This document shows, piece after piece, positions 1-13,415 of a stretch of 53,667 nucleotides of DNA. Numbering within the stretch: the first letter of the stretch is position 1; every line of letters starts with the position of its first letter. Both the position numbers and the translations under genes were made by a program. The notes below the pieces were generated by a model. The model did not search any database. It worked only from the letters and a program-made list of their open reading frames with translations, and was not told where the DNA came from. Origin of the DNA: Clostridia bacterium (lineage in GTDB: Bacteria > Bacillota > Clostridia > Oscillospirales > RGIG8002); the NCBI GenBank assembly GCA_017438525.1, contig JAFRVI010000022.1, positions 1 to 53,667 of the forward strand. Reading direction: 5' to 3'.

Positions 1-1
1 G

Positions 2-151
2 AGCGTGTGCAGCTTCTTTATCGGGAGCGTCGTCTCCTACGCGCTGGAGCTCCCCTACGGCGCGGCGATAGTGCTCACCGAGCTCGCCGTCTTCGGCTGC
101 TTCTGCGCCGCCGCGGGAATAAAGCGGGCGGTGAGAAGGAAGCGGAAGTAA
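2..151 (+). CDS. 3' end of a membrane-protein gene cut by the window edge (possibly a metal ABC-transporter permease tail)
   Basis: An open frame enters from the left edge (...AIVLTELAVFGCFCAAAGIKRAVRRKRK*) with stop TAA at 149-151. Codon usage is GC-rich like the host genes. The family guess rests only on a 49-aa hydrophobic tail. Confidence 0.35.
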   Translation, partial: SVCSFFIGSVVSYALELPYGAAIVLTELAVFGCFCAAAGIKRAVRRKRK

Positions 152-298
152 AAACGATCACGGCAAAAAAGAACGCCTTTTTCACTCGCGATAAGGCAGG
201 TGTCCCGAAGGATAGTTCAATAGTTTATTACTATGTACGTGATAAGTCTTAAAACTCTTTGAGAATTGTCTTTACAAATATGCAAGATTAAAATAATT

Positions 299-322
299 AA
301 AGCGGGGAACTTTCCCCGCTTT
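299..322. terminator. Hairpin terminator between the edge gene and the hydrolase gene (bidirectional position)
   Basis: aaagcgggga / tccccgcttt stem with a 4-nt loop and A/T runs on both sides. Confidence 0.6.
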
Positions 323-353
323 AATTCTACCCAATAATACAATTAATCCTGCT

Positions 354-1352
354 TTAACTTGTGCCATTGCATATAAAGTCAACTATTGCCGAAATGAGTT
401 CATTGGGTAATTCTGAATGTTGATATATTGCAGAAGGATCAGCAACATCGATTTTATATCCGAAATGACTTTGATCTTCAAACACACGAAAACTCATATT
501 GTTCTGATCACCAAGTGTGCTTTGCCATAATTGAATGTCTTTGGGAAAGCTCTGTGCGTCCGCTTTGCTGTTGATGACAAGACACGAAAACTCGGCGTTT
601 TTTAGCGTTTTCAGTATATCTAACTCATTATAACTTACCCAGTAATAGTCGCTCGCTCCATAGTAATATAAACCTTTTGCACTATCTTTTGTCGCTGACT
701 TGGCTTCGCTTTCGTACTGACGGTAAGCAGCTTCATTTGCCTTATCGGCTGATATATACTGATCTGCAGCTATTTCCGCAAGGTGCCGTAGCGACGAATT
801 CCAAAGAATAAGCCCTTTAACCCCACACGTTTTTGACAATTCAACCGATATCTGCCCGCCGAGACTATGGCCGAGCAAATAAACTTCCAGCGTTTTTTGT
901 TGAGATTTCAACCAATTATAAGCACAAGTGTAATCGTCATAATACTCTTCCTTCAATCCGCTTTGTTGAGTGAATCTGTCAGCATATCTGTGTGTGCGTT
1001 TCTCGATGCGTAAAGAATTAACGCCTTTAGCGGCTAAAGCTATCGCCATATCACGGAAGGGTTCAAGCGAACCGATTGTCTCATTTACATCCGACGGACC
1101 GGAGCCCGGAACGAGCAACACAGCGGGTGATCGATCGTTTTTTGAAAAAGTATAAACCGCACTCAAAGCATATTCGCCGCTTTGCAAAATGAAGCTTCTT
1201 TCCGTAACGCCGTTTTCATATCTCTTTTCATAAGTATCACTTTGTTCATCCGGTAAAGAAGCAGAGATTGAAATCTCATTTTGATTGCCGGCCATAGAAC
1301 ATGATGTCAAAAGCAAGATCAGAGCGAAACTAACCACAATGACTCTTTTCAT
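354..1352 (-). CDS. Alpha/beta-hydrolase lipoprotein (serine esterase/lipase-like)
   Basis: Nucleophile elbow GHSLGG. N-terminus MKRVIVVSFALILLLTSC has a lipobox-like LTSC. GAGGT RBS lies before the ATG at 1352, so I prefer that start to the longer ORF start at 1370. The gene is visibly AT-rich compared with its flanks. Confidence 0.8.
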   Translation of the reverse strand: MKRVIVVSFALILLLTSCSMAGNQNEISISASLPDEQSDTYEKRYENGVTERSFILQSGEYALSAVYTFSKNDRSPAVLLVPGSGPSDVNETIGSLEPFRDMAIALAAKGVNSLRIEKRTHRYADRFTQQSGLKEEYYDDYTCAYNWLKSQQKTLEVYLLGHSLGGQISVELSKTCGVKGLILWNSSLRHLAEIAADQYISADKANEAAYRQYESEAKSATKDSAKGLYYYGASDYYWVSYNELDILKTLKNAEFSCLVINSKADAQSFPKDIQLWQSTLGDQNNMSFRVFEDQSHFGYKIDVADPSAIYQHSELPNELISAIVDFICNGTS

Positions 1353-1359
1353 AACTACC

Positions 1360-2049
1360 TCACATTTCATAATAATTGAACCAAAGGCCCGATATCTTCC
1401 CGCCGTGGAAAACGTATTTTATAACTAAACCGAGTTTTTCGTATTTGACATATTGAAGTATCACATTCCGATCGTTTGGATCTAATTCGTTTTTTTCGAG
1501 ACCGACAAAATTTCCAAGAGGTTTTAACGTATCTTTTCTGATTATTTGATAAACCTCTTTCGGCATATATGACTTGATTTTTTCGTTGAGATAATCATAG
1601 AGAATGTCCGTGTCATTGTTTATAATTGCTTCGGTACAGACTATAACCGCTTTTTGACGCTTTTCATCAAGCAGAACAATTCGCCCTTCTGTTTTATCGA
1701 ATATATTTCCGCCGCTTTCAATAACAGACAGTGCTTCATTCAACAGCTTCAACGTTCTGATTTTTTCGGCTATAAGAGCGTGTATTTTTGCTTGATTTAT
1801 TTCAATAGCTGAACGTAGATCTCCGCTATCGTTTTGCAAGTCGCGTATATCTTTCAGTGTCAGACCAAGCGAACGAAGAACAAGTACGTTTCTGATATTA
1901 TCTATTTGCGCGGATGTGTAATGCCTTCTTTGAGTCCCAAAGACTTTTGTGCTTGATATTATGTGCTTTTCCTCGTAAAAACGCAATGTGCGCGAAGTGA
2001 TGCCCAGCATACGGCAGACCGTATTTATATCAAACAATTCTCCACTCAT
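1360..2049 (-). CDS. MerR-family transcriptional regulator with a C-terminal effector domain of unknown type
   Basis: N-terminal MerR HTH signature (VCRMLGITSRTLRFYEEKHIISS) followed by a coiled-coil-like linker. AT-rich, and placed immediately upstream of the hydrolase gene. Confidence 0.85.
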   Translation of the reverse strand: MSGELFDINTVCRMLGITSRTLRFYEEKHIISSTKVFGTQRRHYTSAQIDNIRNVLVLRSLGLTLKDIRDLQNDSGDLRSAIEINQAKIHALIAEKIRTLKLLNEALSVIESGGNIFDKTEGRIVLLDEKRQKAVIVCTEAIINNDTDILYDYLNEKIKSYMPKEVYQIIRKDTLKPLGNFVGLEKNELDPNDRNVILQYVKYEKLGLVIKYVFHGGKISGLWFNYYEM

Positions 2050-2074
2050 TTTCCCACCCTTTTCATTATATCAC

Positions 2075-2105
2075 TTGACGTTGCGTCAATGTCAAGTATT
2101 ATAGT
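2075..2105 (+). promoter_or_regulatory. MerR-type promoter candidate: -35 TTGACG, 19-nt spacer, -10 TATAGT, with a palindrome across the -35 and spacer
   Basis: TTGACG is at 2075-2080 and TATAGT at 2100-2105, with exactly 19 nt between them. TTGACG-ttg-CGTCAA and CTTGAC-n11-GTCAAG inverted repeats overlap the -35 and spacer. The site lies in the divergent region between merR (minus strand) and the cotF-like gene (plus strand). Confidence 0.45.
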
Positions 2106-2197
2106 ATTAAAAATGCCAACTCATTCTTTTTATTTTATCTTTCCGAATATTACCCTCTTTTTCGCGGCATAATAAGCGCGAAAGGACAGGTGAAATT

Positions 2198-2656
2198 ATG
2201 CAGTTATCCCAAAAAGAATCCTCCCTGCTCAACGAGATGAAGGAGCAGGAAAAGCTCTGCATCGAGAAATACGACAAGCACGCCCGATGCGCGCACGACG
2301 GGCAGCTCAAAAACCTTTTCACGCAGCTCTCCTCCGCCGAGGGACAGCATTTAAGCTACCTTGACCAGATAGGCGAGGGCAGGATCCCGCAGGTCAGCGC
2401 CGCGGGCGGCAGCATCCCCTCCGGCTTCACTCAATGCTACGCCTCCGAAACGCCGGAGAAGCACGACGACTGCTACCTCTGCACCGACCTGCTGACCGGA
2501 GAGAAGCACACGTCCTCGCTCTATGACACCTGCATATTCGAGTTCCGCGACGAGGGCGTCCGCAACGTGCTGAACGCCATCCAAAAACAGGAGCAGAACC
2601 ACGGCAAAACGCTCTACGACTATATGAGCGTCAACGGTATGTATCAGGTCAACTGA
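2198..2656 (+). CDS. Spore coat protein F (CotF)-like protein
   Basis: LSQKESSLLNEMKEQEKLCIEKYDKHARCAHDGQLKNLFTQLSSAEGQHLSYL resembles the Coat_F four-helix repeat pattern. A second similar half follows (LTGEKHTSSLYDTCIFEF...QKQEQNH). Confidence 0.7.
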   Translation: MQLSQKESSLLNEMKEQEKLCIEKYDKHARCAHDGQLKNLFTQLSSAEGQHLSYLDQIGEGRIPQVSAAGGSIPSGFTQCYASETPEKHDDCYLCTDLLTGEKHTSSLYDTCIFEFRDEGVRNVLNAIQKQEQNHGKTLYDYMSVNGMYQVN

Positions 2657-2663
2657 ATACGCG

Positions 2664-2691
2664 AAAGCGGCTTCCGCTCGGAAGCCGCTTT
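2664..2691 (+). terminator. Rho-independent terminator of the cotF-like gene
   Basis: gcggcttcc (2667-2675) / ggaagccgc (2680-2688) 9-bp stem with loop gctc, followed by TTT. Confidence 0.7.
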
Positions 2692-2702
2692 AAGTTACTG
2701 TC

Positions 2703-2954
2703 GTTTGCAAAGCAAACATATCGCATTTGCCGAAAGGCAAATATATCGTATCGGCATCGACGATATATCGCATTTGCGTCAGCAAATATATCGCGCCGAG
2801 CGGCGCGAGACATATCGCGGGCGAAACCCGAAAAAAGCAGATGGACGATATGCGCCCAAGGGCGCGCGATATATCGCCTTAGGCGACACGATATATCCGC
2901 TGGCGGATACGATATGCCGGCTGAACCGCCGCGATATGTTCGCCTTCGGCGAAC
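2703..2954. repeat. Mirror-organised array: 5 x ATATCG, then 5 x CGATAT, at a 21-25 bp period, separated by unrelated GC-rich mini-palindromes
   Basis: Read directly from the sequence. ATATCG starts at 2718, 2743, 2765, 2788 and 2812. CGATAT starts at 2846, 2867, 2889, 2910 and 2932. At least nine different short palindromes fill the gaps. Confidence 0.7.
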
Positions 2955-2982
2955 GGGTGCGCCGCTGCGCGGCGCTTTCCGT

Positions 2983-3615
2983 TTATTCTTCGTCGTCGTA
3001 AATGCCGGTGATGAGCTCCTTGGCGTAAGGCAGAGATTCGATCCAGGCGCAGAAGACGTGCCACTCGTCCAGCTTGTGACTGCGGCGCGCGTGATGGATG
3101 TTTATCAGCGTCTCGTAGTTCAGCGTGCAAGTACGCATCTGGTTATAGCTCGACGGGAGCAGCTGTATCATACTGTACCAGAGGGCTTTATCCTTCGTCT
3201 CGTTATACTCGAGCCGGAGCGCCTCCAGCCGGTCGACGACCTGCTGCATAACGACCTTGCTCGCGTCGTCCATACGGTCGACGCTCATATCGTCCATCGA
3301 GAAGGGCTTGCTGTGGATCTTATGCATCGTGCTGCAGGAGTTGGCGACGGTGGCGACCTTGTATGTATCGTATTCCTTCCACCAGTAAAGCGGCGCGTTG
3401 ATGTCTACGGAAACGAATATCTGGCGTACGAACTTGCGGTGGTCGCTGCCGCTCTTGCAGAGGCGGACGGCGAGGGAAAGGTCGTTTTCGCCCAGGACGT
3501 AGTTGCCGTTTTCGTCATAATAGCTGTCGCTTTTCGCCCAGCTGTTGAGCGGGTTTCGCGCCCCGCGTATCGCGTTCTCGAAGTTCATCACCGAGGTGCG
3601 CATAAGTTCTATCAT
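2983..3615 (-). CDS. ThyX-fold (Thy1-like) protein lacking the canonical RHRxxS motif
   Basis: Collinear similarity to ThyX. NAPLYWWKEYDTYKVATVANSCST lines up with [24 protein letters not shown], and LLPSSYNQMRTCTLNYETLINIHHAR with [26 protein letters not shown]. GGAGG RBS is present. Confidence 0.6.
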   Translation of the reverse strand: MIELMRTSVMNFENAIRGARNPLNSWAKSDSYYDENGNYVLGENDLSLAVRLCKSGSDHRKFVRQIFVSVDINAPLYWWKEYDTYKVATVANSCSTMHKIHSKPFSMDDMSVDRMDDASKVVMQQVVDRLEALRLEYNETKDKALWYSMIQLLPSSYNQMRTCTLNYETLINIHHARRSHKLDEWHVFCAWIESLPYAKELITGIYDDEE

Positions 3616-3647: not shown

Positions 3648-4661
3648 TCAAAGAATTATATGTACTTCGCCGAAGCGGAACTCCCTGTATTCGCCGTTGG
3701 ACGCGACGATCAGACTGCCGGTGTCGGAAATGTCGATCGCGGTGCCGCGGAAGGACTCCTTGACGGTGACGACCTCGACCTCCTGGCCGATGACGGCTGA
3801 AAGGTCGCGCGCTTCGTCGACTATGTAGCCGCGCTGCCATTCGACAGCGTCGGACTGCCCGAACTTCACCTGCGCGCTGCCGAAGTAGGCGGCGTAGAAG
3901 TGCTCGATGAGCGACGCCGCGAGGACGTTCGGCTCCGGCGCCTTGCCGGTAAGCTCCTCTATCGAGCCGGCGATATTGCGGATGGACGCGTCGTAGCCGC
4001 CGGGAGGCGTTACGGTGTTTATCCCGACGCCGACTATGCAGTACGCGGGGCAGCCCGCCTCCATATTCATCGTCAGCTCGGTGAGTATGCCGCCGATCTT
4101 TTTGCCGCCGGAGACTATGTCGTTAGTCCACTTGATCGCGGGCTTCAGCGAAGTCGAAGCGGCGATCGCCTTGCAGAACGCGACTCCCGCAAGGGTGGTC
4201 ACGAAGGAGACGTCGCTCGCCTCGAGCGCGGGACGGATGAGCATGCTCATGTAGACGCCGCAGTCGCGTTCACTCTCGAAGCTCTTGCCCTGCCTGCCTC
4301 TGCCGGCGGTCTGCTCGCGCGCGATGACGACGGTGCCGGAGGGCGCTCCCTCGTCCGCGAGCGCGCGGAGCACGGCGTTGGTCGAGCCGGTCTTGTCGAC
4401 AAGCTTGATATCGACCCCCGCGAATTCGCGCGGCAGGTTCGCCTTTATGCCCTCCGCGTCGATAAGGTCGGGGGAGAAGTTGAGGCAATAGCCCTTGTTC
4501 GTGACGGAATAGATCATATTCCCTTCTTTTTTAAGCTGCAGGACGGCCTTCCAGACGCTGCAGCGGGTAACTCCCAGCTGCTGCGCTATCTTTTCGCCGG
4601 AGACGTATTCTCCGCCCGCCTCTTTGAGCAGTTTCAGCACTTTTTGCGACGTCGACGACAT
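3648..4661 (-). CDS. birA: Bifunctional biotin-[acetyl-CoA-carboxylase] ligase / biotin operon repressor
   Basis: N-terminal HTH (EKIAQQLGVTRCSVWKAV), the GRGRQGKSF biotin-binding loop, and a C-terminal SH3-like tail. I place the start at the ATG at 4661, which has GGGGG upstream. Confidence 0.9.
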   Translation of the reverse strand: MSSTSQKVLKLLKEAGGEYVSGEKIAQQLGVTRCSVWKAVLQLKKEGNMIYSVTNKGYCLNFSPDLIDAEGIKANLPREFAGVDIKLVDKTGSTNAVLRALADEGAPSGTVVIAREQTAGRGRQGKSFESERDCGVYMSMLIRPALEASDVSFVTTLAGVAFCKAIAASTSLKPAIKWTNDIVSGGKKIGGILTELTMNMEAGCPAYCIVGVGINTVTPPGGYDASIRNIAGSIEELTGKAPEPNVLAASLIEHFYAAYFGSAQVKFGQSDAVEWQRGYIVDEARDLSAVIGQEVEVVTVKESFRGTAIDISDTGSLIVASNGEYREFRFGEVHIIL

Positions 4662-8719: not shown

Positions 8720-9069
8720 GGGGGCGCACCGGTTTCGACAGGGATTCGGAACCCGTATAAGCGAGCAGTGCTGCGGACGCACTTTAATACCCGCAAAAAA
8801 CAATAAACGCGAATAACGAATTTGCGATCGCTGCCTAACTAAAGGCAGCCGTCCGCCGGGAGAGTACCGCGGCTTCCGAACGGGCGTCATCGAGCGGTGC
8901 ACGTGAACGCGCAAAGCTTTGAGCGCGTCATGAAAAATGAAGCTACCCGACTCCGCGGCCTGCCGGACCGGCGGCGGACGAAGGGAATCTTTTAAATAGC
9001 CGGCTACGCTCGTAGAAAGTGCGGCGGATGGGTTTTTGGACAGGAGTTCGACTCTCCTCGCCTCCACCA
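8720..9069 (+). ncRNA. ssrA: tmRNA (transfer-messenger RNA)
   Basis: 5' GGGGGCGCACCGGTTTCGACAGGG and 3' GGAGTTCGACTCTCCTCGCCTCCACCA form the tRNA-Ala-like domain. The probable tag reading frame is GCG AAT AAC GAA TTT GCG ATC GCT GCC TAA (8809-8838, ANNEFAIAA*), with the stop in a hairpin loop (gctgcc-taactaaa-ggcagc). Length is 350 nt. Confidence 0.9.
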
Positions 9070-9107: not shown

Positions 9108-9290
9108 GGAAATGAAGACGCCCTTGCGGGCTGATGAAGGAATGAAGACGCTTCGCTAATGAAGAAATGAAAAATGAAGAAACAAACGTTGCCGGCGTCT
9201 TCGCTTCATTAGACGCTATGCGCCGACTTCATTAGGCGCCGCGCGCCGTCTTCATTAGGCGGCCTTGCCGCCGATTTCATTTTCTTCTTA
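9108..9290. repeat. Mirror-organised array of ATGAAG / CTAATGAAG cores (forward, then reverse) interleaved with GC-rich mini-palindromes
   Basis: ATGAAG starts at 9112, 9134, 9142, 9159 and 9174, with the variant ATGAAA at 9167. CTTCAT starts at 9204, 9227 and 9250, each as CTTCATTAG. TTTCAT starts at 9275. The 10-mer AATGAAGACG is at 9111 and 9141, and its reverse complement is at 9247. Confidence 0.65.
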
Positions 9291-11030: not shown

Positions 11031-13415
11031 TTACTTTATCGCTTCGGTCCAGTGCTCGTAGGCGAAGCGGTCGGTAAGCATATACGCCGCGATCGGGGTT
11101 CCGTCCGCGGGGTTCAGCGTGACGTCGGAGACCTTCAGGCTTCCCTCTCCCGCGTAGGTGAACGAGCCGCCGAGCATATAGGAATCCTCATAGGTCCCGT
11201 CGTAGGCGTAGCGGTCGCAGATCGGCTGGATCTTGTCGCCGTCGGTCAGCTCCGCCGCCTTCGCGACGGTGTCGGTCTGACCGTCCGCGTAGATATAGCG
11301 GACGCCGGAGACCTCCGCGCCGCCGTTACGGAAGGTGACGAGCAGCTCCGCGCGGTCGCCGTTGATCAGCACGGGAACGCGGCCGTGGATCACGGTCGCG
11401 CCGTTCTCCTCGACGCTGTCGGTGAAGTAATACGCGACGGGCTGGTTGTTTATCGCGATCCACATACCGTCGTATTCGCCGATAAGGTCGCCATCTTCGT
11501 CGAAGCTGAAGATCGAATCGAGCCCGAGGTCGATATAGCCCCTGCCGTCGTCAAGGAAGACGTTGAGCTGAATATCCGCGACCTTCGCCCACTCGGATTC
11601 GGGCAGCGAAAGGACGCTGCGTCCGTCTTTTTCCGTCCAGATCAGCGGCGAGGAAATGCGGGCGTCCTCCACCACTTCTATCAGCGTATCCTCGGGGATA
11701 TCGCGGTCGAAGACCCTGTCGCTTCCGAGCAGCGAGCTGAGCGAGAAGCCGCCGTTTCCGCCGCCGAGCAGCGAGCCGATAAGATCCGCCACGCCGCCGG
11801 AAGAACCGGCGCCTCCCAAGCCGCCGAGCAGCGAGCCGAAGGGAGACGTGCTGCCGCCGCCCGCCGCCTGACCGCTTACCTCAAGCGAGGCAAACTTCTT
11901 GACGCAGGCGGTGTAGTCGTCGTCAAAGCCGATCGCGTCGAGCTGATTCACAGCGGTGCTGACGCGGCTGGCGGAGCGGTACGGGAAGTACGCCGCCAGG
12001 CCGTAGGCGTCGGTAACTCCGCCGCCGACCTTGTTGTATTTGACCGCGCTGAGAAGCGCGTTCGCGAGCGAACGGCTCTCGGCCGTATCGAGAAGCAGAG
12101 AAAGATGCACGAGGTCTATCTGGTCGAGCTTGCTGGAAGCGCCGAATTCGCGCGTGTCGCCTCTCGCTTTCGAGACCTCTTCATAGCCGCTGCCGCTGAT
12201 GGTATCCGCGGTCTTCTTCGCGAACGCGGTCAGCTCGTCGGGGATCGTCGCGGAAAGCTCCGCGAGGTCAGTCACCGAAAGGGTGGTCTTCTGTCCCCTG
12301 CACTGCTGCGCGCAGGTCTGCACGAAGTCGTCGGCGATTATCTTGCCGAGCGAAGGGGTATCTATCGCGGGGTTTTTGCCGAGCTCCGTCAGCCAGCGGG
12401 TGTGGTACCAGCCGATGCCGGGTTCGGTCTCCTCGCTGCCGATGAGGTAATCGGCGTAGGGCGCTACCGTCAGCGCGGTTTCCACCGACGCCATAAGGCA
12501 GGCGTCGAAGCCGACGAAGTCGAAGCTCACGCCGCCGTCCTTCAGCGCCTTCGCGATCGAGGAGAGCGTCATCGAGCCGGAATCCTTCTTGGTTTCGTCG
12601 TAGCCGAAGCCGGAGACCGAGCCGCCGCCGTGATCCCACATGACGAGTATGTTGCGGTTCGCCGGATAGCGCCTCGCACACCAGCTGATGAAGCCGGAGA
12701 GCGCGGAGGGATCGGTCATCGATTTCCTGCCGCCCGCGTCCTTCTCGAGCAGGCGCAGGCCGCCGTTTTCAACGGAGTATATCTGATGCGCGGTGTTTGA
12801 AATGCCGCTCGTCTTCCACTGGCTGCAGCCGCCGGTGTATACTATCAGGTTCACGTTCGATCCGAGATCCGCCTGCGCCATTTCGCGCAGGTCCGCGGTC
12901 GCCATGCCCTTTTTGGATTCAAGGTCGGTGCCGCAGAGGTAGACCATGACGGTAACGGTGTCGCGGGCGTCGCCGTAGAGGACGGTGCGCTTCGCCGCCG
13001 CGGACGAGGAGTCGAGCTTGCCGGTGTTGTCGCTGCCCGTCCACGTGCCGTCGCTGTATGAGCTGTTGCCGAGGAAGCTGCCGAAGAGGGACGTTATGCC
13101 GCTGTTCTGAGTCTGGGAGGGAGTTTCCTCCCCTCCGCCGCCGAGGAGCGCGGTAAGTCCGCCGCCTCCGCCTGCGAGCAGTACGATGACGGCGATGATG
13201 ATACCGATAATGCCGCCCTTGCCGCCGCCGGCACGTTCTCCGCCGCCGCCGTAGCCGCCTCCGCCTCCTCCGCCGCCGCTTCTGCGGGCGGAGTACGCGT
13301 CACGTTTGCCTACCGGCCCCGTGCCGAGCCCGCCGCCGTGGGTACCGACGCTGTTGCCCATACCTCCGCCGACGCGCTGTCTTCCGACGGGTCTGTTGCC
13401 GTTTTCATTCGCCAT
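11031..13415 (-). CDS. Clostripain-family (C11) cysteine peptidase, membrane anchored, with a glycine-rich N-terminal tail
   Basis: VMVYLCGTDLES, the catalytic His context VMWDHGGGS and the catalytic Cys context GFDACLMAS. One TM helix (IIGIIIAVIVLLAG). An AAGGAGGG RBS precedes the ATG at 13415 (MANENGN...). Confidence 0.8.
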   Translation of the reverse strand: MANENGNRPVGRQRVGGGMGNSVGTHGGGLGTGPVGKRDAYSARRSGGGGGGGGYGGGGERAGGGKGGIIGIIIAVIVLLAGGGGGLTALLGGGGEETPSQTQNSGITSLFGSFLGNSSYSDGTWTGSDNTGKLDSSSAAAKRTVLYGDARDTVTVMVYLCGTDLESKKGMATADLREMAQADLGSNVNLIVYTGGCSQWKTSGISNTAHQIYSVENGGLRLLEKDAGGRKSMTDPSALSGFISWCARRYPANRNILVMWDHGGGSVSGFGYDETKKDSGSMTLSSIAKALKDGGVSFDFVGFDACLMASVETALTVAPYADYLIGSEETEPGIGWYHTRWLTELGKNPAIDTPSLGKIIADDFVQTCAQQCRGQKTTLSVTDLAELSATIPDELTAFAKKTADTISGSGYEEVSKARGDTREFGASSKLDQIDLVHLSLLLDTAESRSLANALLSAVKYNKVGGGVTDAYGLAAYFPYRSASRVSTAVNQLDAIGFDDDYTACVKKFASLEVSGQAAGGGSTSPFGSLLGGLGGAGSSGGVADLIGSLLGGGNGGFSLSSLLGSDRVFDRDIPEDTLIEVVEDARISSPLIWTEKDGRSVLSLPESEWAKVADIQLNVFLDDGRGYIDLGLDSIFSFDEDGDLIGEYDGMWIAINNQPVAYYFTDSVEENGATVIHGRVPVLINGDRAELLVTFRNGGAEVSGVRYIYADGQTDTVAKAAELTDGDKIQPICDRYAYDGTYEDSYMLGGSFTYAGEGSLKVSDVTLNPADGTPIAAYMLTDRFAYEHWTEAIK

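Follow-up and report, generated by a model that had tools for sequence, protein, structure and literature searches.

A mirror-symmetric hairpin array resembling a pair of Gut-1 RNA modules between convergent genes of a Clostridia bacterium

What kind of element is a 252-bp array of short mirrored repeats that separates the convergent stop codons of a gene for a CotF-domain protein (cotF) and a gene for a 210-amino-acid (210-aa) protein? We addressed this question for contig JAFRVI010000022.1 of a Clostridia bacterium (GenBank assembly GCA_017438525.1), whose positions 1 to 53,667 were analyzed and are called the window here. A preliminary description of this DNA had reported five ATATCG cores followed by five CGATAT cores with unrelated mini-hairpins between them, and had preferred to see in them an iteron or centromere-like protein-binding site. 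The window array is a real, non-random feature and probably a variant of a known but functionally blank family. Very probably, it consists of two inverted, outward-pointing copies of a divergent multi-hairpin module of the Gut-1 RNA class. That these copies form a bidirectional pair of RNA modules acting as a decay or processing barrier is the reading that we favor, at a probability of about 0.5. The second choices of the preliminary description, an intergenic family resembling repetitive extragenic palindromes (REP) and bacterial interspersed mosaic elements (BIME) or a multi-hairpin RNA, came close to this evidence.

Direct reading and a script placed ATATCG at 2718, 2743, 2765, 2788 and 2812 and CGATAT at 2846, 2867, 2889, 2910 and 2932, as had been reported. 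All nine mini-palindromes proved to be perfect in a script check, with the stems and loops originally given, and the described anatomy was borne out: the core is constant, the hairpin varies and the orientation switches. Each half holds one additional core in the opposite orientation (CGATAT at 2761, ATATCG at 2871), and these create two 10-bp palindromes, CGATATATCG. In 5000 dinucleotide-preserving shuffles of positions 2703-2954, the best oriented run plus mirror was 1 + 1 in 4949 cases and 2 + 2 in the other 51; an arrangement of 3 + 3 was never reached with any 6-mer, compared with 5 + 5 in the window array, so that shuffled sequence does not reproduce the pattern. Eight perfect hairpins with stems of at least 5 bp are present in the same segment (shuffle mean 2.0, shuffle maximum 6). 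Both strands fold far better than the shuffles (z = -5.9 and -7.2), the predicted fold pairing left cores with right cores and leaving the small hairpins as side branches. The proposed period of two helical turns did not hold up: it is merely the length of a core plus a hairpin. The 21-25 bp of the window reflect hairpin length rather than helical phasing, and across the class, among the matches listed, cores are spaced 16-31 bp apart.

Gut-1 RNA (Rfam RF01706) was described by Weinberg et al. (2010, Genome Biol 11:R31; PMC2864571) in human-gut sequences only; it was rated an RNA that is not cis-regulatory, and this is the only paper mentioning the motif. Its consensus, CAaUGAAAU-hairpin-GUGAAAU-hairpin-GUGAAAU-hairpin-UGUGAAAU, is likewise a constant core plus a variable hairpin, and a module of the Gut-1 class is a run of four to five short GC-rich variable hairpins with a constant single-stranded 6-7-mer as their joiner. 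Among the members in the seed alignment are GUGAUAU forms that follow a tRNA, the mirrored half standing unannotated in the flank. An Rfam scan of the window at gathering thresholds (50 bits for Gut-1) returned transfer-messenger RNA (tmRNA), two tRNAs and signal recognition particle RNA only, and no Gut-1. The best family on each half of the array was nevertheless Gut-1, with 22.3 bits (E = 0.048) at 2715-2796 on the minus strand and 21.1 bits (E = 0.099) at 2843-2920 on the plus strand. The preliminary description had said that a match to an already described REP/BIME family would undo its finding; a resemblance to a described family, Gut-1, was observed, though below threshold. Above- or near-threshold Gut-1 half-arrays occur in other sequences that we compared (given here by handles of the form L218), namely in L285 (80, 59 and 57 bits), L218 (75), L090 (56) and L088 (64.6 and 49.9), while arrays with a CGATAT core in viral contigs of IMG/VR score 31-34 bits.

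A covariance model, R1, was built from five units in the viral contigs L159, L176, L141 and L344 and the chromosomal unit of L088, with the window excluded. It matched the 53.7-kb window at 2844-2939 on the plus strand (28.8 bits, E = 6.6e-5) and at 2686-2750 on the minus strand (28.2 bits, E = 9.4e-5) and nowhere else; its E-values are rough owing to a short calibration. Bona fide Gut-1 elements score 56-89 bits with R1, and in 1.28 Mb of other Clostridia the model had a single match, in L029, a contig of an Oscillospiraceae metagenome-assembled genome. The L029 element is a single unit that has GCGAUAU and GUGAUAU linkers side by side and ends 20 nt before a ribosome-binding site (RBS). In the window, each half has five hairpins and five identical linkers, (G)CGAUAU, with C in place of the Gut-1 U. 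Furthermore, an exact-pattern scan of IMG/VR for ATATCG-CATTTGCC-NNNN-GGCAAAT-ATATCG gave one match, in the phage contig L159, where only the 4-nt loop differs from the window copy; this L159 copy belongs to an array between a scaffold-like gene and the major head gene.

Typical loci of the class share more than the repeated core. They begin with a stable hairpin (with a T-run in chromosomes), followed by CAAC or CAG, a linker with hairpin 1, three more linker-hairpin steps and the exact reverse complement of the first 10-13 nt, and the whole often recurs in reverse complement. The distal 10-13-nt complement was located at +82 to +91 in 10 of the 19 first units tested, its sequence differing between arrays. 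RNAalifold, with 10 pairs changed on both sides, predicted a 13-bp closing helix around hairpins 2-4, and this helix competes with the local hairpin 1. Units of related arrays differ in their stems, while their linkers are invariant. Strains of one human-gut species display covariation of ttgaTgc...gcAtcaa with ttgaCgc...gcGtcaa, the single-change variants T.G and A.C being found in other strains, and a second compensatory pair, aattTGc...gCAaatt and aattCAc...gTGaatt. Summed over 30 units, the sense strand has 85 G.U pairs and the antisense strand 30, and the summed minimum free energies are -795 and -730 kcal/mol, respectively, a difference of 65 kcal/mol in favor of the sense strand, on which Gut-1 loops run from U to C (UUC, UGC, UCC, UAC, UGAC, UUAC, UCAC). 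Because the stems are variable but complementary, change in compensation among strains and in most units are enclosed by the closing helix, the module probably acts as a folded single strand, most likely RNA, rather than as protein-binding duplex DNA, although we hold this with less assurance than the assignment to the Gut-1 class. The inverted pairing, the closing helix, the phage copies and the alternative linkers are not described in PMC2864571.

The same grammar recurs at other chromosomal loci. A second array at 9108-9290, also claimed previously, could be verified: AATGAAG occurs five times and then CTTCATT four times, immediately behind the terminator of the tmRNA gene (8720-9069). When the window was scanned generically for a k-mer run followed by its reverse-complement run, it was the sole other array to emerge. 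Some of its 8-mers are contiguous, and others are separated by hairpins. All close relatives examined have a mirror array at this position behind the tmRNA terminator, each built on a core of its own: TGATAT/ATATCA in L088, (T/G)AAATCC/GATTTC in L090 and contiguous heptads (TCTTCAG) in L094. Only some of these arrays reach the Gut-1 threshold; L088, a 97 % relative, has a bona fide Gut-1 pair there, its 64.6-bit element lying at 4009-4085. In L090, tRNA-Met is followed by a partial AAATCC array and, 300 bp beyond it, by a GTGATG/CATCAC array. In L218 and in a human-gut species whose CotF is only 55 % identical, GTGAAAT arrays stand directly after tRNA-Trp and its terminator, with one stem shared and the hairpins mostly different, and the tRNA-Trp array has thus been retained at one locus across these species. 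Islands enter at the tRNA 3' end, between the tRNA and the array, and leave the array with the original end; the array therefore belongs to the backbone and not to the islands. A strict grammar scan of 1.3 Mb from 80 other Clostridia species returned nothing among the matches listed.

Two further observations concern these and similar loci. The point after tRNA-Trp holds various islands in various strains and is an integration hot spot with attachment-site-like duplications. In the human-gut species (L248-L295, about 11726-11900; for example L285, 11727-11897), tRNA-Trp is followed by ~170 bp of additional sequence that terminates in another tRNA-Trp 3' end (GTCCTTCTGCCCCTGCCA) and is not called as a tRNA or as an Rfam family. 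Mirror arrays of contiguous heptads (GATTAAN, AAAATTA, GCCGTTC, AGGAGTN) around centres of 100-140 bp were seen in L221 (4965-5110 and 15138-15280), L224 (1735-1935), L226 (2063-2250) and L232 (1737-1900 and 2543-2697), and the two L221 copies have different heptads around a common centre with a -10-like TATAAT. They resemble invertible-promoter cassettes or long-stem hairpins and are probably a class distinct from Gut-1; for their inverton-like look and their long centres, the heptad-only arrays of L221, L224 and L232 were not merged with the Gut-1-like family.

In viral contigs, units occur within operons. The IMG/VR arrays were chosen by script from the three-core pattern matches listed, which numbered at least 120 and were mostly due to chance. 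In the phage contig L344, the order is TerL, unit, portal, unit, protease, scaffold-like gene, major head gene, unit; the units begin right after a stop codon, and that between portal and protease extends to the next RBS. Near-identical copies were seen within one 10-kb phage contig. Five unpaired units (three in L344, one in the 5' untranslated region, UTR, of L029 and one in the leader of the L141 rep gene) are all co-oriented with the flanking genes, and the four with an identified downstream gene (all but the third L344 unit) end just before its RBS. Pairs are found between the scaffold-like and major head genes of L159 and L176. In L141, a rolling-circle replication gene (HUH type, PF23343; 5140-6162) is followed by a CGATAT/ATATCG mirror pair, and its leader holds GATACGA heptads and a five-unit GTGAAG hairpin array; tblastn with this Rep protein detected no homologue in the compared sequences. 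A blastn search in "distant" mode with the window array found no match among the PLSDB plasmids and INPHARED phages.

These contexts are consistent with a barrier or processing mechanism, which we propose tentatively and by analogy, with rather less than even confidence. A row of stable hairpins in a transcript would stop 3'-5' and 5'-3' exonucleases, and the exposed G-A-W-A-U linkers, each preceding a stem, are candidate entry sites for an endonuclease. The preferred cleavage position of RNase Y is 3' of a G in an A/U-rich stretch (PMC4608709), and at the S. aureus saePQRS site a duplex 6 nt downstream guides the enzyme (PMC5449607). Like an intercistronic processing site, the module could in this way divide an RNA into parts that differ in stability. 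Operons read in one direction would be served by single sense units, for instance between head-morphogenesis genes of phages. Behind bidirectional terminators or between convergent genes, a chromosomal inverted pair would present one sense unit to a transcript from either side and might act as a bidirectional insulator for read-through RNA.

Several observations weigh against a barrier of paired Gut-1-class RNA modules in the window. Both halves remain far under the Gut-1 gathering score. The closing helix is missing from them, the longest complements being 0 and 6 nt, and the units point outward, opposite to most pairs, so that transcription from either gene would read its nearer half as antisense. 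The phage contig L159 has the same inverse arrangement at 1428-1540. Taken alone, the window array displays no sense-strand preference in G.U pairs or folding energy, and in the wider sample a single conserved U.G where linker and stem meet accounts for much of the G.U excess, which thus does not represent many independent events. On the antisense strand, the loops are GNA, GNRA or GNNA closed by C-G (GAA, GCA, GGA, GUA, GUAA, GUGA, GUCA); GNA and GNRA loops are stable in DNA as well as in RNA and are unexplained by a sense-RNA model. The array lies beyond two terminators with no promoter-like site, and it may be barely transcribed and do little. Finally, its absence from close relatives shows that it is dispensable at this site.

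The relatives of this lineage give an account of how the array came to lie there. A metagenome search with CotF yielded one close relative, L218 (the others were at most 64 % identical), and the genome contigs retrieved in one scan with the 210-aa neighbor were, among the matches listed, distant relatives only (at most 76 % identity) that have no array. In six further contigs from separate samples, with an identical 210-aa protein, the intergenic region is identical; the array is thus invariant in all seven contigs carrying it (100 % identity) and yields no covariation signal of its own. The genes flanking the gap in L218 are 98 % and 96 % identical in DNA, yet window positions 2692-2968 (277 bp) are replaced by 101 bp holding a different hairpin repeat, GTCATTCTGAG...GAAGGATC, written as GTCATTCTGAGCG-hairpin-CGAAGGATC. 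Relatives with a 95-97 % identical 210-aa protein have one copy of this repeat in the gap, a 92 % relative has four, and a 94 % relative has only a 56-bp bidirectional terminator. The array is missing from L218 and from these relatives with 92-97 % identical 210-aa proteins. The preliminary description had allowed that absence from close relatives, with no copies elsewhere, would count against it; the absence was observed at this site, but related copies exist elsewhere. Since the array is absent from a relative with 96-98 % identical flanks, it is a very recent gain, and the cotF/210-aa gap is a turnover hot spot for hairpin repeats, with the ATATCG array confined to one lineage. The intergenic regions of the relatives yielded neither a common junction sequence nor a target duplication. 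The window copy is probably of phage-related origin and, placed between two terminators in a "safe" gap, may be nearly neutral there.

The repeat that fills this gap in the relatives (one to four copies) belongs to a second hairpin-repeat family of the form TGTCATCCTGAGCG-[variable GC hairpin, often GCGAAGC]-CGAAGGATC, with constant flanks and a variable stem. It was seen in L088 (10650-10690), L092 (3470-3680, four copies), L094 (10680-10725), L096 (1668-1706), L218 (6553-6592) and the viral contig L141 (6227-6262). The family has no Rfam match, and a literature search on the GTCATCCTGAG repeat returned primers only.

Turnover of this kind is what a selfish or domesticated DNA repeat of the REP/BIME type would produce, and such a repeat is the strongest competitor to a barrier of RNA modules, although we consider it improbable. 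It would spread as DNA, its single strand forming hairpins beside a short linear motif that a strand-specific HUH/Y1 transposase or Rep-like protein recognizes, and effects on RNA would be by-products. Presence or absence at an orthologous site with flanks 96-98 % identical, where one to four copies of another hairpin repeat stand instead, agrees with this, as do the near-identical copies in one 10-kb phage contig, the tandem module duplications in strains, the inverted pairs, known also from BIMEs, and a unit common to phage and chromosome. No array lies inside a gene: they follow stop codons or terminators or separate convergent genes; the GNA/GNRA loops on one strand are typical of stable DNA mini-hairpins; and the HUH rolling-circle rep gene of L141 has arrays on both sides. 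However, there is no target-site duplication or clean boundary, the entire intergenic stretch being replaced, and no transposase or RAYT gene was found beside chromosomal arrays in a scan that covered only the genes around arrays, nor a homologue of the L141 Rep by tblastn in the compared sequences. The tRNA-Trp array kept at the same locus while CotF has diverged to 55 % identity would be unusual for a purely selfish repeat, and the gene-orientation bias of single units fits RNA better. Nor does the window show the REP/BIME hallmark of many near-identical palindromes: the hairpins are unrelated within and between arrays, and there are two arrays in 53.7 kb.

If RNA is the active form, it need not act in cis. 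The view taken in Rfam, that of independent small RNA genes, would make the modules trans-acting RNAs, for example sponges or scaffolds that hold an oligomeric protein, each of its subunits on one of the four to five identical linkers ringed by the closing helix; we regard this as quite unlikely. It draws on the rating of Gut-1 as a non-cis-regulatory RNA by Weinberg et al. (PMC2864571), on conserved linkers between variable stems, on a closed multi-way junction with quasi-repeated joiners and on the long-distance conservation beside tRNA-Trp. But the units have no promoter before them, a terminator T-run or a stop codon lying only a few bases ahead of their start, and the phage units fill gaps between stop codon and RBS inside operons. 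The 15-bp centre of the window array is too short for divergent promoters. The linkers also differ within one genome (ATATCG and AATGAAG in the window, AAATCC and GTGATG in L090); several partner specificities would therefore be needed.

Least probable of the three is a duplex-DNA array bound by protein, that is, a parC-like centromere, an origin of the Staphylococcus aureus pathogenicity island (SaPI) type or a terminase pac site, and we consider it very unlikely. The mirror symmetry, with 4 + 4 or 5 + 5 short repeats about a centre and a spacing of ~22 bp in the window, would suit it, and some arrays stand beside a replication initiator gene (L141) or, in one phage family, at the terminase-portal junction. 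Other viral contigs do have true iteron-type mirror arrays around AT-rich centres: L128 (2000-2180) carries four ATTCCC and six GGGAAT about an AT-rich centre of 70 bp; its repeats have no intervening hairpins, and the array has the classical look of an iteron-flanked, SaPI-like replication origin and is a putative duplex iteron array. Against such a function of the window array, and against the R1 parC-like placement of cores on one helix face that had been proposed for it, stands the unphased spacing (16-31 bp, as given above). Among related arrays, the spacers keep their hairpin potential by compensatory changes, and the closing helix is conserved in position, not in sequence; duplex binding would leave these perfect, co-varying palindromes and the long-range complement unexplained. 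Moreover, one genome can hold several different cores, 5' UTRs and gaps between cistrons contain isolated half-arrays, and single units are co-oriented with genes in phage operons. No par, rep (replication initiator) or terminase genes are present among the genes examined near the window array, and blastn revealed no similarity to any plasmid or phage record in PLSDB or INPHARED. A SaPI-type origin was rejected in particular, as the centre spans only 15-30 bp and is not AT-rich.

The remaining candidates can be dismissed briefly: a miniature inverted-repeat transposable element has defined ends and a target duplication, which are lacking here, and the tRNA-Trp array is conserved across distant species; arm sites of the attP type, suggested by the tRNA/tmRNA location, do not fit islands that enter between tRNA and array and leave the latter attached to the original tRNA end, nor was an integrase gene present among the genes examined beside arrays; a type III toxin-antitoxin system (ToxI-like) was set aside on general grounds, with units that are not identical direct repeats and no toxin gene noted among the neighbors examined. 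The preliminary description had rightly excluded a plain terminator, a simple tandem repeat and a CRISPR array, whose direct repeats would measure 23-50 bp and alternate with unique spacers of similar length, compared with repeats of 6-7 bp here, where the "spacers" are palindromes of 13-19 bp and the orientation flips.

The coordinates of the array and its surroundings are collected in Table 1. The terminator of cotF, preceded by an A-run and followed by a T-run, is potentially bidirectional; it forms the left edge of the inserted block and is kept in all relatives compared. At the other end, the 5' arm of the terminator-like hairpin falls inside the lineage-specific block, as judged by comparison with L218. 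A promoter scan found no sigma-70-like promoter in or beside the array.

Table 1. Features of the array region in the window and of related arrays behind tmRNA
Feature	Sequence	Position	Strand	Remarks
CotF-domain gene	window	2198-2656	+	array lies beyond its stop
Intrinsic terminator of the CotF-like gene	window	2664-2691	+	inverted-repeat scan; 13-bp perfect stem
Lineage-specific block with the whole array, 277 bp	window	2692-2968	.	blastn of L218 against the window, and sequences of relatives
Left Gut-1-like unit	window	2703-2832	-	reads outward to cotF; five GCGAUAU-type linkers
Hairpins of the left unit	window	2703-2717, 2725-2742, 2772-2787, 2792-2807, 2818-2830
Core-containing palindrome of the left unit	window	2741-2768
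Unit ATATCG-CATTTGCC-gaaa-GGCAAAT-ATATCG, 31 bp	window	2718-2748	+	common to phage contig L159, 4471-4501
A-rich centre aaaaaagcagatgga	window	2831-2845	.	head-to-head junction of the two units; no promoter-like site
Right Gut-1-like unit	window	2843-2956	+	reads outward to the 210-aa gene; five CGAUAU linkers
Hairpins of the right unit	window	2852-2865, 2875-2885, 2897-2906, about 2917-2930, 2938-2954
Hairpin GCGCCGC-tgc-GCGGCGC, then TTTCCGTTT	window	2959-2975	+	terminator-like (terminator scan)
210-aa protein gene	window	2983-3615	-	convergent with cotF; BirA next
Post-tmRNA array	L088	3904-4085
Post-tmRNA array	L090	3925-4085
Post-tmRNA array	L094	about 3900-4040

The neighbors of the window array encode the CotF-like protein, the 210-aa protein, BirA, an ABC ATPase, a MerR protein and a hydrolase. 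The 210-aa protein had been labeled thyX-like, a label for which we found no support, as the protein has no Pfam match and a profile search gave no match to a PDB sequence. It is strongly conserved, being 70-76 % identical, among the matches listed, across many families of Clostridia (Lachnospiraceae, Oscillospiraceae and others), and in close relatives its gene always lies beside birA. Next to cotF, window positions 1-2160 form a low-GC block (0.41, compared with about 0.6) with a MerR-family regulator and an S33-like hydrolase. The block is present in the contigs with an identical 210-aa protein and does not align in L218. L088, L090 and L092 lack it and have ABC-3/ZnuA genes after cotF instead, and it was probably inserted in this lineage only.

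Rfam has listed Gut-1 since 2010 without an organism, a context or a function. Our comparison places it in uncultured Clostridia of the ruminant and human gut and in phage-like contigs, usually as inverted pairs just behind the terminators of tRNA-Trp, tRNA-Met and tmRNA genes, with most units closed by a co-varying long-range helix. Its constant linker exists in several versions that the Rfam model misses, and in phages the gaps of head-morphogenesis operons are occupied by single units. An orphan motif thereby becomes testable, and the family is probably larger than current models count. A broader idea, speculative and in our view improbable, is that Gut-1-class modules are a portable RNA domain shared by phages and hosts, a closed multi-way junction whose functional ring is made of four to five identical single-stranded 7-mers. 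If so, the hairpins would be spacers required to differ from one another, and the exchangeable linker (GUGAAAU, GYGAUAU, AAUGAAG, GUGAUG and others) would set which oligomeric protein or nuclease is recruited. Phages would tune the stoichiometry of head proteins by single modules, modules would move between phage and chromosome, and bacterial inverted pairs would act as bidirectional insulators between convergent genes and downstream of highly expressed RNA genes. The conclusion for the window is narrower: its array was acquired recently, is extragenic and is very probably not a plasmid-like centromere or origin.

Among known systems, parC of plasmid R1 resembles the window array in its size and in having two clusters of about five short repeats around a centre. 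However, parC repeats are direct, contiguous, 11 bp long, bound by ParR and located beside parMR, whereas the window clusters are inverted, have repeats of 6-7 nt separated by unrelated palindromes, belong to a family of co-varying stems and unphased spacing and have no partition genes nearby. Intercistronic RNA processing sites, such as the RNase III sites of phage T7, are likewise structured elements in the gaps of co-transcribed genes that keep shape over sequence and set different stabilities on their two sides; they consist of one long duplex, whereas the module is a series of small hairpins, and chromosomal modules sit beyond terminators. By analogy, G|AWAU followed by a stem in the modules would match the cutting preference of RNase Y. 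The REP and BIME elements of enterobacteria are extragenic palindromes, known stabilizers of mRNA 3' ends, with which RAYT transposases are associated. The arrays share with them the position after stop codons and between convergent genes, the inverted pairs and clusters, the lineage-specific presence and a short conserved linear motif beside a hairpin; the hairpins of one REP family are near-identical and numerous, whereas those of the window type all differ and only the 6-7-nt linker is constant. From Gut-1, the window pair differs in the C of its linker in place of U, in having five hairpins per unit instead of three or four, in its missing closing helix and outward direction, and in its position between convergent protein genes rather than after a tRNA. 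What it has in common with Gut-1 are the short consecutive hairpins with variable stems, which co-vary in the wider family, and a constant linker resembling the purine-rich 7-mer of Gut-1 (GUGAAAU/GUGAUAU in Gut-1, GCGAUAU in the window), together with the origin in uncultured gut Firmicutes and the start a few bases past a terminator or tRNA.

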